From positions 1-64,000 of the forward strand of contig CAYNLP010000003.1 in the NCBI GenBank assembly GCA_964398115.1: 64,000 nucleotides of DNA, written 5' to 3'. Numbering within the stretch: the first letter of the stretch is position 1; each line of letters starts with the position of its first letter. Under the pieces are notes generated by a model. That model ran no database searches. It saw only the letters and a list, made by a program, of their open reading frames with translations, and had not been told where the DNA came from. Position numbers and translations under genes: made by a program. Positions 9,088-44,457 of this stretch are shown here, piece by piece. Origin of the DNA: an uncultured Methanosarcinales archaeon (GTDB lineage Archaea; Nanobdellota; Nanobdellia; Woesearchaeales; CAYNLP01).

Positions 9088-10101
9088 ATGTCTGAGGTTC
9101 TCAAATTCCCGGAAGAATACATTGACGAGTTTGACAGTGAAGATTTACTTTCTGATATTAAAGAGTTACCAACTCAACTCAAGGAAGGATACGACCTCGT
9201 GGAAGACATCACACTGCAAAACCCTAGTAAAGTCATAATTACAGGCATGGGTAGTAGTTTTTCAGCAGGACACCTCTTGAAAAGTTATTTGAGAGAATCA
9301 GGAGTTATGGTTATAGCTAACCAAGATTATTCTTTACCTGAAACCACAGACGGTGATAGTTTGGTGATAGCTATTAGTTATTCTGGCAATACTGAAGAAA
9401 CTGTTTCAGCGTATAGAGAGGCGGTGAGGAAAAAATGCTCCGTGATATCTTTGTCTCGAGGAGGAAAGCTTAGAGATTTGAGTGATATGAACGACACGCC
9501 TTTTGTTAAGCTGCCTAGTGGCTACAAGCCACGCGTCACTTTAGGATACCAAGTGGGTGCTTTACTTGGCGTTTTAGAAGAAGCAGGTATAATAAGGAAT
9601 GCTAAGTCACAGGTTAAGAATGCAAGCAAGGCGTTGAAACTAGACGTATTTGAAGATTATGCGAAGAAAATCTCTGAAAAATTAGAAGGGCGTATTCCTT
9701 TAATATATAGTTCTAAAACTTACTATCCGGTAGGCTATCGATGGCAAAACCAGTTTAATGAGAACAGTAAAATCATTGCACACAGTAATGTTTTTTCTGA
9801 TTTAAACCATAACGAAGTTGAAGGTTTCAGAAATGCCGACCAACAAGGTAGCTTTCAAATTGTGATGTTGCAAAGCCAGGACGACGCTCCCAAGATTAAG
9901 CAAAGGATGAAAACCACTCGTAAAATAGCTCAGGATATCGGCGTTGATGTGACACAAATTGGTATAAAAGGTAATAGTTACTTAACCAGGTTACTTTCTG
10001 GCGTCATGATTGGAGATCTTAGCAGTTATTATCTGGCCTTACGAAACGAGGTTGATCCTTCAGATATTGGAGCGATTGAGAAAGTTAAGAATCAATTATA
10101 A
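9088..10101 (+). CDS. Bifunctional phosphoglucose/phosphomannose isomerase (SIS fold)
   Basis: GMGSS, SYSGNTEET, QFNENSK, LNHNEVEG. Confidence 0.92.
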   Translation: MSEVLKFPEEYIDEFDSEDLLSDIKELPTQLKEGYDLVEDITLQNPSKVIITGMGSSFSAGHLLKSYLRESGVMVIANQDYSLPETTDGDSLVIAISYSGNTEETVSAYREAVRKKCSVISLSRGGKLRDLSDMNDTPFVKLPSGYKPRVTLGYQVGALLGVLEEAGIIRNAKSQVKNASKALKLDVFEDYAKKISEKLEGRIPLIYSSKTYYPVGYRWQNQFNENSKIIAHSNVFSDLNHNEVEGFRNADQQGSFQIVMLQSQDDAPKIKQRMKTTRKIAQDIGVDVTQIGIKGNSYLTRLLSGVMIGDLSSYYLALRNEVDPSDIGAIEKVKNQL

Positions 10102-10139: not shown

Positions 10140-10295
10140 TTATTGGTTCTTAGCTACGCCGCATAGGCCGAGTAGTGTGAATGCAGCGCTGTACCATTGT
10201 ATACCGAACATGTTCCAAGTTGTAAAGTCAGAAATGAGGTACAGCACACCTACGACCAATACTAGCCAGTTAAACCATGCTGGTGCGTCACCCAT
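10140..10295 (-). CDS. 51-aa small membrane protein (not in ORF track)
   Basis: MGDAPAWFNWLVLVVGVLYLISDFTTWNMFGIQWYSAAFTLLGLCGVAKNQ; strong SD GGGGGTGA upstream; TATA-like TTTATATA further upstream. Confidence 0.75.
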   Translation of the reverse strand: MGDAPAWFNWLVLVVGVLYLISDFTTWNMFGIQWYSAAFTLLGLCGVAKNQ

Positions 10296-10390
10296 AAATT
10301 TCACCCCCGTAATAGTATGATACTATCATATTAAATGAATTACTTATATATAAATATTATTACTACCACTGTGCTTTTTCCTATACTGAC

Positions 10391-10537
10391 AACCGAAAAG
10401 TTTAAAAACAGAAAAGCTCATAATTAGTGTTGCATTGGTCAGAATCGTTGGGGGATTCTTAACAGACTAAAAGTATAACTTACACCTATGTTAGATCCCA
10501 ATATTTCATAACGTAACACCCCGGTGAAGAGGAAAAA
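10391..10537 (+). promoter_or_regulatory. tfe promoter (BRE/TATA) and structured ~110-nt 5' leader
   Basis: CCGAAAAG-TTTAAAAA at 10393-10408; complementary segments 10427-33/10513-19, 10435-40/10465-70 and 10441-46/10454-59. Confidence 0.6.
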
Positions 10538-11077
10538 ATGACTGAAACAATAAATGTTCATAAGGAAAAAGAAAGCGCGGAAGTTACCGACGAAATGATA
10601 GACGAAGTAGTCGAAGAACTCGTCGGTGAAGATGCACTTCCAGTGGTGGAATTTCTAAAAGGAAAAGAACACATTTCAGAATTCATAGTCGCAGAAGAGC
10701 TCGATCAAGAAATCCACGAAACCCGAAAGCTTCTCTACAAGCTCCTAGAACACAACATCGTAGAATTCGAAAGAAAAAAAGACAAAGTAAAAGGATGGTA
10801 CATCTGCTACTGGGACTTAAACAAAGAAATGGTCCCATACCTCGTTGAAAAAATTAGAAAAGAAAAACTAGAAAACCTAAGAGAAAGATTAGAAAACGAA
10901 GAAAAAACCAGCTTTTACATGTGCAACAACGCATGTATAAGAATGAGCTTCGAAGAAGCAATGGAATTCGACTTCCAATGTCCAGAATGCGGACAACTAA
11001 TGGAAGAAAAAGACAATTCCAGAACCATAGAATTCTTGAAAGAAAAAATAGAAAAACTAGAAAACAGTCTAGAATAA
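10538..11077 (+). CDS. tfe: Transcription factor E alpha
   Basis: wHTH ISEFIVAEEL...RKLLYKL, KGWYICYW, Zn ribbon CNNAC...FQCPECG. Confidence 0.93.
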   Translation: MTETINVHKEKESAEVTDEMIDEVVEELVGEDALPVVEFLKGKEHISEFIVAEELDQEIHETRKLLYKLLEHNIVEFERKKDKVKGWYICYWDLNKEMVPYLVEKIRKEKLENLRERLENEEKTSFYMCNNACIRMSFEEAMEFDFQCPECGQLMEEKDNSRTIEFLKEKIEKLENSLE

Positions 11078-11115
11078 AGCTTTATAACACCCTTCTACTT
11101 TACCAAACAAACAAT

Positions 11116-11844
11116 ATGGAAATAGCAGAAAAACCTTTCAAAATTTCTGAAAACACGTATATAAAAGACCTCTGCCTATACATAGAAGATTTAAACACTC
11201 TAGTCATAGGAGACGCACACCTAGGATATGAAGAAAGTTTAAACAAGCAAGGTGTATTAATACCCAAATTTCAATTCAAAGAAATAATGGAACGATTAAA
11301 GAAAATAATAGATGACACCAATCCAGAAACTATCATCGTAGTAGGAGACTTAAAACACGAATTCGGCACGATAAGCAACGAAGAATGGAGAGACACCCTA
11401 GACTTTATCGACTTACTGCAAGAAAACGCAGAATTAATACTAATCAAAGGAAACCACGACACCATCTTAGAACCAATTGCAGAGAAGAAAGACGTGGAAA
11501 TACACGACCACTACACAATAGGAGAATACTACTTCTGCCACGGACATAAAATACCCGAAGATTTAGAATTCCAAAACGCTTCCACCATAATCATTGGACA
11601 TGAACACCCCGCCATAGGTTTGAAAGACGGTCCAAGAGTAGAAACCTACAAATGCTTCCTCAAAGGAAAAAACCAAGATAAAGAAATAATAGTACTACCA
11701 AGCCTAAGCACATTGCCAAAAGGAACAGACGTGTTAAAAGAACAAATACAAAGCCCATTCCTCAAAGACTTATCAAATTTCAAAGCATTTATTGTAGAAG
11801 ACGAAGTATACGACTTTGGCAAAATAAAAGAATTGAAAAGTTAA
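11116..11844 (+). CDS. Calcineurin-like metallophosphoesterase
   Basis: DAHLG, GDLKH, GNHD, HGH, GHEHP; real start is probably ATG 11116. Confidence 0.9.
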   Translation: MEIAEKPFKISENTYIKDLCLYIEDLNTLVIGDAHLGYEESLNKQGVLIPKFQFKEIMERLKKIIDDTNPETIIVVGDLKHEFGTISNEEWRDTLDFIDLLQENAELILIKGNHDTILEPIAEKKDVEIHDHYTIGEYYFCHGHKIPEDLEFQNASTIIIGHEHPAIGLKDGPRVETYKCFLKGKNQDKEIIVLPSLSTLPKGTDVLKEQIQSPFLKDLSNFKAFIVEDEVYDFGKIKELKS

Positions 11845-21853: not shown

Positions 21854-21974
21854 ATATACGAAGTAGTAAATGATGTTTTATAAAATCTCCGATAGGTTCA
21901 TTACCAAAAAACTTATATACATCTGTAAAAACTTTTTGTCATTGTAGAAACTTTATAGTTGGGGGTTAGGTAAA

Positions 21975-31220: not shown

Positions 31221-31357
31221 GCAAGTAAAAAAGTAATTCTGAGCTTATAAACATTATGCAAAAAAGCTTTGGACGATAACCTTTAAAAACACGAGATTAT
31301 TCCCGATTTAATGCAAAGAAAAGATTCTAAACAGACTAAAATTAGGAGGGATAAAAC

Positions 31358-33019
31358 ATGCCAGAAGATCAAGGTGGACAACCAATTTTCATAATGTCAG
31401 ATGACACTGAAAGAACCAAAGGTAAAGACGCTCAAAGTATGAATATAATGGCTGCAAAACTTGTAGCCGAAACCGTACGGACCACGCTAGGTCCAAAAGG
31501 AATGGACAAGATGATCGTCGATTCTATGGGAGACGTCATAGTAACAAACGACGGTGTCACAATACTAGATGAAATGGATATACAACATCCGAGCGCGAAG
31601 ATGGTTGTAGAAATTGCACAAACACAAGAAGACGAAGTAGGAGACGGAACAACCACTGCAGTAGTACTAGCAGGAGAACTCTTGAAACAAGCAGAAGACT
31701 TGTTAGAACAAAACCTACACCCAACAGTAATCGCTAAAGGGTACAGGATGGCTACAGAGAAAAGCATGGAAGTGCTAAATGACATCGGTAAACCAATAAG
31801 TATAGATGATAAGGAAGACCTGAAAAAAGTAGCCATGACAGCCATGACTGGAAAAGGAGCAGATACCAACAAAGAAATACTAGCAGAACTAATAATTCAA
31901 GCTGTTAGAAAAGTAAGCCAAGAAACAGGCGAAGGTATCGAAACCGACATCAACGACATCAAAATAGAAACAAAAGTCGGTGAAGGAGTTGAAAACAGCG
32001 AACTAATAGAAGGTATCGTTCTAGATAAAGAAAAAACACATCCAAGAATGCCATCAAATGTGAAAAACGCAAAAGTCGCTCTTCTAGACACACCATTAGA
32101 AGTGAAAAACACGGAAACAGACAGTCAAATAAACATTTCTGACCCAGAAAAAATGCAAAGCTTCCTAGACATGGAAGAAGACATGCTAGAAAAAATGGTC
32201 GGAAAAGTATCAGACAGCGGTGCAGACGTGGTATTCTGTCAGAAAGGAATAGACGACCTAGCACAACACTTCCTAGCTAAGAAAGGAGTAATGGCAGTCA
32301 GAAGAGTCAGCAAAAGGGACATGGAAAAACTAAGTAAAGCAACCGGTGCAGAAATAGTAAGCAATGTCAAAGACCTAACCAGCAAAGACTTAGGTCAAGC
32401 TGGAAGAGTACAAGAAAAAAGTTTGGGAGACGAAAACATGATTTACGTTAAAGATTGCAAGAAAGCTCAAGCAGTCACCGTCTTAATAAGAGGCGGCACG
32501 ACACACGTAATTGATGAAATTAAAAGAGCTTTAGAAGACGCGATCGGCGACGTGACAACCGCTCTCAAACATGGTCAAGTCGTAGCAGGAGCAGGAAGTC
32601 CCGAAGTAGAGTTGTCAAGAGAACTCTCTCGATTCGCAGATAGCCTATCCGGAAGAGAACAACTCGCAGTAGAAGCTTTCAGCACTGCACTAGAAGTCAT
32701 TCCAAGAACGCTAGCGGAAAACGCTGGTTTAGACCCAATTGACGTCCTCACAGAACTAAGATCAGCACATGACGAAGATAAAGAAAGCTTCGGCGTGGAC
32801 GTTGTCAGTGGAGAAGTCATAGACAGTTGGGACGCTGGAGTTGTAGAACCATTGAAGATCAAAACACAAGCGGTTTCAAGCGCTAGCGAAGTAGCCGTGA
32901 TGATCTTGAGAATTGACGACGTGATCAAAGGCGGTAAAGACAAAGCAGGACCGGGCGGACCAGGTGGAGGACCCGCACCAGGCGGACCAGGTGGAATGCC
33001 ACCAGGCCTCATGGGTTAA
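31358..33019 (+). CDS. Thermosome (group II chaperonin) subunit
   Basis: [26 protein letters not shown], Gly/Pro/Met tail. Confidence 0.98.
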
Positions 33020-37258: not shown

Positions 37259-37377
37259 GCCGCCCTAGCTCAGCCTGGCTAGAGCACCACGCTCATGAAC
37301 TGTGAGCTATGAGCCAAGACTGGCGATGATTATCAGGTGTACCGTGGGGGTCGAGGGTTCAAATCCCTCGGGCGGCA
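37259..37377 (+). tRNA. tRNA(CAT), probably elongator Met, with a 44-nt intron in the anticodon loop
   Basis: GCCGCCC/GGGCGGC acceptor; CCACG-CT-CAT...CGTGG interrupted by 44 nt (about 37298-37341; exact junction ambiguous by 1 nt). Confidence 0.88.
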
Positions 37378-43798: not shown

Positions 43799-44457
43799 AT
43801 GAGTTTAGAAAAACTGGAACAAGAAACTAAAAAAGCTGACCTGCCTTTGAAAGAATCATCTATCAACTTAGTCTTCGGCAAAGGAAATCCCAACGCAGAC
43901 ATAGTCTTCATAGGAGAAGCTCCGGGAAAGCAAGAAGATATTGAAGGACTTCCTTTCGTTGGTAGAGCAGGAGAGCAACTTGATGAATTTTTAAACACGA
44001 TAAACTTATCACTAGATGACGTTTATATAGCGAATGTGTTGAAATACAGACCTCCTGATAATCGCGATCCTAAAAAAGAAGAGATTAAAAAAGAGAATAA
44101 AGTTGATTAGACTTAAAAATTTACTTATTGAAGGTANNNNNNNNNNTTCTTGTAAAACAATTGTTGGAAATAAAGCCCGAAGTTATAGTCACACTTGGTA
44201 ATTTCTCAACAAAATTCGTGTTAGGAAATTTTGAAGTAGACAATATGAGCAAAGTCCAAGGTATCAGCCAATTACACGGCAAAGTAAAAGAAGTTAGTTT
44301 AGAAGATAACACTTTCCTAGTATTGCCAATGTACCATCCAGCAGCTATGTTATACAATCCAAACCTTGAAAAAGTAATTAAAAAAGATTTTAAGAAATTA
44401 CATAACGTTTTAAACGGAAAATTTGAAAAAAACAGTTCACTAAAAGAATTTGAGTGA
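43799..44457 (+). CDS. Family 4 uracil-DNA glycosylase, interrupted at a scaffold gap
   Basis: [22 protein letters not shown] in the 5' part; VTLGN and YHPAA in the 3' part; N-run near 44138-44147. Confidence 0.88.

Follow-up and report, generated by a model that had tools for sequence, protein, structure and literature searches.

A recurrent orphan Shine–Dalgarno-like sequence and 5′ hairpin in the predicted leader of an archaeal tfe gene

In a 64,000-nucleotide (nt) stretch of DNA from an uncultured archaeon (contig CAYNLP010000003.1 of assembly GCA_964398115.1, positions 1 to 64,000; hereafter the window), tfe, the gene for transcription factor TFE, is preceded by a predicted leader that opens with a hairpin carrying a Shine–Dalgarno (SD)-like run of G residues in its loop. 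The run is an orphan, in that no start codon stands behind it, and a G-run at the corresponding place recurs upstream of tfe in many relatives. We tentatively favor the view that hairpin and orphan SD form a conserved 5′ leader module that may act on mRNA stability or on ribosome loading. TFE is a general initiation factor, and its level can tune transcription genome-wide. To our knowledge, little is known about the control of TFE synthesis in archaea and nothing about it in DPANN archaea. Our search of open-access papers and bioRxiv found nothing relevant on the tfe leader or on leader features in DPANN, and the passages of PMC2699501 on TFE and on 5′ untranslated regions (UTRs) do not mention a tfe leader.

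Results

Predicted promoter and leader of tfe

Promoters were sought with a 14-nt position weight matrix (PWM) for the B recognition element (BRE) and TATA box, trained on the upstream regions of 62 of the 63 open reading frames (ORFs) of at least 100 amino acids (aa) called in the window. The site assigned to tfe (Table 1) is one of four that score at least 12 on the two strands of the window and is the sole plus-strand site of at least 5 between 10290 and 10545. Nothing promoter-like lies nearer to the ATG: from 10411 to 10525 the PWM does not score above 0.0. Many genes of the window are leaderless or nearly so, as the original prediction for this DNA had noted: in 22 such genes the TATA-type 14-mer begins at a median of −37 relative to the ATG (range −50 to −29). 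Because the same spacing from the tfe promoter leads to about 10434, we place the transcription start site (TSS) there and predict a leader of about 104 nt, which is probably unusually long for a genome with many leaderless genes. The earlier claim that a long leader sets tfe apart agrees with this placement.

An orphan G-run close to the predicted TSS

The G-run lies at about +16 of the predicted TSS, 88 nt ahead of the tfe ATG, and no ATG, GTG or TTG follows it within 3–12 nt. It is an SD-like sequence in a predicted 5′ UTR without a use for initiation, which is the mark of a STAB-SD element. For comparison, the tfe loci of 80 relatives, one per GTDB species, were chosen through a 47-sequence TFE alignment; they do not include the window’s own genome. 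At least 200 nt upstream of the TFE match was available for 79 sources, and 51 of these (50 loci and the window) had a promoter-like site scoring at least 8. Of the 47 tfe sources in this set that could be scored, 26 have GGGG between +5 and +25 relative to the predicted TSS. The frequency falls to 7/47, 3/47 and 2/41 in later 21-nt bins, and stands at 1/51 between −30 and −10. At a PWM score of at least 10, the G-run is present at +5 to +25 in 23 of 40 tfe promoters compared with 8 of the 157 promoter-like sites found elsewhere in this DNA (Fisher p = 5.2e-13).

Most of these runs are orphans. No ORF follows the run in 18 of the 23 tfe promoters just mentioned, and in the set with sites of at least 8 an ORF of at least 40 codons beginning 2–12 nt past the run is absent from 19 of 26. 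A short upstream ORF behind the run was considered and rejected, as a start codon (ATG, GTG or TTG) stands 3–12 nt downstream in only 3 of the 19 orphan cases, where our base-composition estimate gives about 7. The sequence T[TG]GGGG is the usual SD in the relatives’ genomes, preceding a start codon and an ORF of at least 60 aa at 50 other sites; an Rfam scan of the window and of 20 related loci found no 16S rRNA. The distance from G-run to ATG varies from about 50 to 175 nt in the relatives. Across the 60 nt past the run, the median pairwise identity is 0.55, compared with 0.54 after shuffling (171 pairs), and because the surrounding leader sequence is saturated in this way, the G-run stands out as selected. 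A second G-run in the window, behind a promoter-like site at 21908, proved to be the ordinary SD of a TTG-started ORF of 154 aa.

Among the 80 loci, only that of the closest relative, L001, shares leader sequence with the window by blastn. The match covers 23 nt at 95.7% identity, includes the SD and ends right before an upstream in-frame ATG at position 54 of L001, whose contig begins 53 nt before that ATG. In the window, the tfe ATG itself directly follows the matching 23 nt.

The 5′ hairpin and its recurrence

The complementary segments named in the original prediction are all present in the tfe leader. They are GTGTTGC (10427–10433) and GTAACAC (10513–10519), TTGGTC (10435–10440) and GACTAA (10465–10470), AGAATC (10441–10446) and GATTCT (10454–10459), the loop GTTGGGG (10447–10453), the bulge TAACA (10460–10464), and, farther downstream, CACC (10483–10486), TGTTA (10489–10493), TCCCAAT (10496–10502), GGTGA (10523–10527) and GAGG (10529–10532). 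Minimum free energies (MFEs) were compared with those of 200 dinucleotide shuffles. The inner hairpin (10434–10471) is modestly better than chance, in line with what had been proposed for it, with an MFE of −9.7 kcal/mol against −4.9 ± 2.0 (z = −2.45; 3 of 200 shuffles as good). The whole 111-nt leader (10427–10537) folds no better than its shuffles, at −22.1 kcal/mol against −20.4 ± 3.05 (z = −0.55; 53 of 200 as good). Because the TSS is predicted at about 10434, the hairpin, which begins at 10435, would lie at the extreme 5′ end of the RNA, the position that defines a 5′-terminal stem-loop.

To compare species, the complementarity between the 16 nt before the G-run and the 16 nt past its fourth G was measured against shuffles. 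This flank test was run on 42 of the 49 G-run loci, the others being dropped for doubtful assignment (L002, L027, L035, L036, L042, L069 and L080). Among the 31 loci without the extended TFE described below, seven reach p < 0.05, namely the window (p = 0.022), L007, L012, L020, L048, L049 and L070, and three more lie at p 0.058–0.076; Fisher’s combined p over the 31 is 0.0075. One of the 11 extended loci reaches p < 0.05. Control G-runs do so at 3 of 50 real SDs and at 9 of 191 other sites, and the hairpins are enriched at tfe G-runs (7/31 versus 12/241; Fisher exact p = 0.0024). Judged by this test, the hairpin around the tfe G-run is recurrent but not universal. The stem sequences are unrelated between loci (AGAAUC/GAUUCU, CGUUU/AAACG, AAGAC/GUCUU, CUUAC/GUAAG and AUCAGG/CCUGA). 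Because the stems differ in sequence between species, an RNA hairpin is favored over a DNA palindrome bound by a protein. When 10 hairpins were aligned with MAFFT, their G-runs came into register but their stems did not, and permutation tests were used in place of a covariance model.

Table 1. Features of the tfe locus and of the thermosome promoter, in window coordinates
Feature	Position	Strand	Details
tfe promoter (BRE/TATA), predicted, AAAGTTTAAAAACA	10397–10410	+	PWM score 12.2
Proposed closing helix, 5′ arm	10427–10433	+	Pairs with 10513–10519; upstream of predicted TSS
tfe TSS, predicted	10432–10436	+	10397 + 37 = 10434
5′-proximal hairpin	10435–10470	+	TTGGTC/GACTAA and AGAATC/GATTCT; loop GTTGGGG; bulge TAACA
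Orphan SD-like G-run, GTTGGGGGA	10447–10455	+	In hairpin loop; about +14 to +22 of predicted TSS
19-nt motif, GATTCTWAACAGACTAAAA	10454–10472	+	3′ half of hairpin; second copy at 31323–31341
Alternative long-range helix	10460–10502	+	TAACA/TGTTA and GTTGGGG/TCCCAAT; pair probability 0.53–0.87
Working SD region of tfe, GGTGAAGAGGA	10523–10533	+	Kept in L001; unpaired probability 0.63–0.75
tfe coding sequence	10538–11077	+	179 aa; Pfam PF02002 TFIIE_alpha, 5.9e-14, residues 19–122
PGI/SIS gene	9088–10101	+	Upstream of tfe
Divergent small membrane-protein ORF	10140–10304	−	54 aa; own promoter-like site 10358–10345 (−), weaker than that of tfe
Thermosome promoter and predicted leader	31278–31357	+	Promoter 31278–31291 (score 12.1); leader about 44 nt; carries the 19-nt motif

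Lineage differences behind the G-run

The sequence between the G-run and the TFE core differs among lineages. At 11 loci (L003, L006, L008, L011, L013, L015, L016, L021, L023, L040 and L043), the G-run serves as the SD of an extended TFE, whose ATG follows 5–9 nt after it. The N-terminal extension of these proteins is conserved, measures about 43 aa, begins with MIETDVRK and is located about 130 nt before the match start; it is absent from the TFE of the window and from the Pfam domain model. In this extended group a hairpin precedes the G-run, begins at the predicted TSS and has a conserved CGAT/ATCG core with loops of about 3 to 20 nt. Long lysine-rich TFE extensions are found in L010, L050, L056, L058, L059 and L062. 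In L038 (about 2760–2990) and in L068 and L074 (both about 2790–2990), the conserved promoter/G-run is separated from tfe by a small cysteine-rich ORF of about 70 aa that may encode a zinc ribbon, which makes tfe a second cistron at these three loci. With the G-run serving as an SD in the extended group, the module appears positionally homologous to a true region of translation initiation.

Two further features of the relatives’ tfe upstream regions were seen. One is a tfe-specific element between TATA box and predicted TSS, TTCCAGGAA-like or TCAAGAA (for example in L013 at about 2822, and in L011, L051 and L058). This element begins 21–22 nt past the start of the 14-mer and occurs in 16 of 40 tfe promoters compared with 1 of 157 others, for a pattern defined post hoc; the window does not have it at 10411–10430. 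The other is a set of GC-rich tfe leaders in L002, L009 and L014 that look different and more structured, share blocks such as GGTTCTGCACCCG and AAAGGGTGC about 100–200 nt before the TFE match, and match no Rfam family.

A motif shared with the thermosome leader

The 19-nt motif in the 3′ half of the tfe hairpin occurs exactly twice in the window, in the same orientation, the copies differing at its single W position. The second copy lies in the predicted leader of a thermosome gene (31358–33019; Cpn60_TCP1, 7.7e-189). Chance would give 0.13 matches and 1 of 100 shuffles gives two, for a pattern that was derived from the same two sites; an independent blastn-short comparison of the tfe and thermosome copies returned E = 0.007. 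The two promoters are near-identical as well, both containing TTTAAAAACA and scoring 12.2 and 12.1. The thermosome leader is unstructured (z = −0.13); what the two leaders have in common is thus the motif and not an RNA hairpin. The window holds no further copies at up to 3 mismatches, and the core 12-mer at up to 2 mismatches is not enriched in it (16 found versus 15.1 expected). No 12-mer taken from the motif has an exact match in the loci of the 80 relatives, and none of these loci contains a thermosome gene. The shared motif could point to co-regulation of tfe and the thermosome gene, at the DNA or the RNA level.

Discussion

A 5′ leader module as the favored reading

In the reading that we favor, the strong promoter at 10397–10410 would drive tfe with a leader of about 104 nt, and a hairpin at the predicted start of this leader would present the SD-like G-run GUUGGGGGA in its loop, no start codon standing behind it. 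The module would take up the first ~40 nt. A TSS-proximal G-run, often in or beside a short hairpin, would be common to tfe leaders across the clade, and the module may derive from, or be shared with, a genuine translation-initiation region. The orphan SD with its stem-loop could shield the 5′ end, by binding a 30S subunit or in some other way. Either a stabilized long untranslated leader or a ribosome stand-by site would be the outcome. That tfe has an undescribed cis-acting leader element, as originally predicted, is plausible because many relatives have an equivalent of its 5′ part upstream of tfe. What stands of that prediction is the conserved 5′ feature; its proposed forms as a switch, pseudoknot, thermometer or riboswitch fared poorly, as discussed below.

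The STAB-SD of Bacillus thuringiensis cryIIIA was reportedly described by Agaisse and Lereclus in 1996, and 5′-terminal stem-loop mRNA stabilizers of the Escherichia coli ompA type are said to go back to Emory, Bouvet and Belasco in 1992. The tfe leader resembles the STAB-SD of cryIIIA and the related SD-dependent 5′ stabilizers of Bacillus subtilis hbs and aprE in that its SD-like sequence is remote from the start codon, within a long predicted 5′ UTR, and has no translation start behind it. It differs from them in that its host is an archaeon and not a Firmicute and in that its G-run lies in or beside a hairpin at the predicted 5′ end. With the ompA type it would share a hairpin within a few nt of the 5′ end, whose position is predicted here. 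A ribosome bound at the SD of B. subtilis hbs blocks a 5′ exonuclease (PMC5737220), 5′ stem-loops and SD-bound ribosomes shield bacterial mRNAs from 5′ exonucleases more generally (PMC5737220; PMC7509114), and a 5′–3′ exoribonuclease, aRNase J, exists in archaea (PMC7144898). If orphan SD and hairpin do act on stability or loading, bacterial-style 5′ stabilizers would extend to archaea, and there would be a concrete handle on the regulation of TFE.

Several points weigh against this reading. The nested-fold ensemble favors the alternative helix (0.53–0.87) over the hairpin, which has a probability of 0.02–0.13 at equilibrium, and the G-run is mostly paired (unpaired 0.09–0.25); display of the run in a loop would need co-transcriptional folding. 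Across the 31 non-extended loci the hairpin is not universal, with a median z of −0.16 in the flank test. The TSS is a prediction only, from a PWM trained on this window alone. An nhmmer profile of 17 relatives’ non-coding leaders returned 10 hits at E ≤ 50, and the window leader was not among them; homology rests on position and a short motif for this reason. The loci represent one genome per species yet are phylogenetically related, so that the counts do not represent independent events. An action of the G-run at the DNA level would be an alternative.

A more ambitious version of the module adds the thermosome. Its hairpin would present the orphan SD to a ribosomal subunit or a dedicated protein throughout the clade, thereby setting the stability or translation of TFE mRNA, and in this genome the 19-nt motif would couple it to the thermosome gene. 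We regard this version as doubtful. If it is true, the coupling would tie global transcription capacity to stress, and no STAB-SD or stand-by-like element would have been described in archaea before this one.

A functionless remnant

The module may also be an evolutionary leftover, in which a downstream shift of the start codon, or the loss of an N-terminal extension or upstream ORF, left behind an old SD with a chance hairpin in a leader that does nothing here. We think this unlikely. It would account for the way in which the stretch between the 5′ module and the TFE core varies by lineage, as an extension, a small ORF or non-coding sequence, and it fits the resemblance of AATCGTTGGGGGAT in the window to the hairpin arm plus SD of the extended group. 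However, the position of the G-run is kept in the 19 orphan cases despite saturated neighboring sequence, and no significant coding remnant was detected. An nhmmer profile of the 11 extended loci gave three hits (E = 2.6–5.1), all of them elsewhere in the window, and the best local peptide score of the leader was 28 compared with 22.5 ± 3.8 for shuffles (p = 0.10). Should the module be no more than a relic, what remains is an ordinary long leader.

A DNA operator

The inverted repeat at 10435–10470, the motif at 10454–10472, or both, may instead bind a regulator shared with the thermosome gene, as part of a stress or heat-shock-type regulon. The two motif copies share their orientation and lie at +10 to +40 of promoters that are among the strongest, and the second gene encodes a chaperonin; the thermosome leader is unstructured, which speaks against a shared RNA hairpin, and the relatives have their own tfe-specific element at about −16 (16/40 versus 1/157). 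An inverted repeat and a motif just past the TSS, with the motif present also at a chaperone gene, resemble archaeal repressor operators that overlap or follow the TSS, such as that of Phr in Pyrococcus. Unlike Phr sites, the tfe motif has no known resemblance to the Phr consensus, has two sites in all and has half-sites that are not conserved in relatives, where the stems differ and exact 12-mers of the motif are missing from the 80 loci. The pattern was drawn from these two sites themselves, its core 12-mer is at chance level, and stems that vary by species are a better fit to RNA than to a conserved protein site. We consider an operator distinctly unlikely.

A switch, pseudoknot or sequestered SD

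The original prediction had described a switch-like or pseudoknotted riboregulator, acting as a thermometer, a riboswitch or a protein-binding RNA, in which a closing helix, the hairpin and pairings between loop and downstream segments control TFE translation. We find this very improbable. The segments are there, and the hairpin and the alternative helix are indeed mutually exclusive, with bare-helix energies near each other (−9.7 and −8.0 kcal/mol). Pairing beyond chance, which the double pseudoknot or exclusive helix would imply, did not emerge in the window: the alternative-helix segment (10447–10502) has z = −0.83, with 38 of 200 shuffles as good, next to the z of −0.55 for the whole leader. 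We then scored duplex pairing of the G-run with the downstream leader at 29 of the 49 loci, skipping 20 in which the run lies less than 25 or more than 200 nt from the ATG. In the window this pairing has p = 0.27, and its best partner is 10517–10527 and not TCCCAAT. Strong pairing is seen in L007 (p = 0.007) and in L064 (p = 0.013), and L061 reaches p = 0.056, yet only 2 of the 29 loci fall at p < 0.05, with a median z of −0.02 and a combined p of 0.15, so that the pairing is not general in the relatives. In L001 a C-run, GACCCCTC, is retained at the place of GATCCCAAT in the window, which leaves room for a pseudoknot in the window’s sub-lineage, but the data as a whole do not support one.

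The remaining parts of that model fare no better. The 5′ arm of the proposed closing helix GTGTTGC/GTAACAC is probably absent from the RNA because it precedes the predicted TSS. The leader resembles RNA thermometers (ROSE, fourU) and riboswitches in being a structured 5′ leader before an SD-led gene; unlike in these, the SD is predicted to be exposed, there is no aptamer family, and structure is not conserved past the first ~40 nt. A thermometer is unlikely because the SD is predicted to be mostly unpaired at 37 °C under three assumed 5′ ends (Table 1). A riboswitch is unlikely because the relatives’ leaders vary from about 50 to 175 nt and differ like shuffles past the G-run, leaving no conserved sequence there. 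Rfam 15 recorded no aptamer family in the window at gathering score and no family matching the tfe leader; at E ≤ 10 there were two hits, both at chance level and both over the leader 3′ end, SD and start of the coding sequence. Rfam likewise shows no known RNA family in the leaders of the 20 related loci, out of 80, that were scanned. No terminator-like site was found within the tfe leader. The 7-bp acceptor-like helix at 10427–10520 also raised the candidate of a tRNA or split tRNA, which was rejected, as neither ARAGORN nor Rfam reports a tRNA there and no T-arm is visible by eye.

A start near the ATG

Very unlikely, in our judgment, is a real TSS near the tfe ATG from a promoter that the PWM does not see, which would make the leader plain intergenic DNA and leave the 10397–10410 promoter to serve something else or nothing: the start at about 10434 is a prediction only, and the A/T-rich AAAGTATAAC (10470–10479) could be a weak TATA box giving an SD-led leader of about 35 nt, as for several other genes, but the PWM reaches no more than 0.0 over 10411–10525, the relatives are arranged alike, with a strong promoter 50–175 nt before the ATG, and neither an ORF nor a known RNA was found between promoter and tfe.

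Genomic context and further observations

The window has a G+C content of about 39%, and its genes resemble those of DPANN archaea classed as Woesearchaeota or Nanoarchaeota. By its sequence, the gene behind the leader is that for TFE, the homolog of TFIIE alpha, with a winged-helix domain followed by a zinc ribbon whose cysteines C129, C133, C148 and C151 are invariant in the 47-sequence alignment. There are 274 TFE homologs, and the best non-self identity is 67%, from metagenome-assembled genomes of the Woesearchaeota/Nanoarchaeota type. With the 54-aa ORF on the minus strand and tfe on the plus strand as its flanks, 10305–10537 is a divergent intergenic region. Small divergent ORFs of similar kind also lie upstream of tfe in L011, L015 and L016. 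Downstream, a metallophosphoesterase gene (ATG at 11116) has a TATA-like sequence, AAAGCTTTATAACA, 40 nt ahead of its ATG (window 11076–11118, read by eye), and tfe looks monocistronic because this gene has a TATA-like sequence of its own.

Five related loci have a 23S rRNA gene ahead of tfe and in the same orientation (L064, 1–2537; L048, 1–2219; L022, 1–500; L039, 1–491; L061, 1–313), with no 5S or 16S gene detected beside it in these loci. Elsewhere in the window, an Rfam tRNA match at 37259–37377 (+; 119 nt, 52.3 bits), at which ARAGORN is silent, is probably an intron-containing tRNA, and 10 N at 44137–44146 mark an assembly gap.

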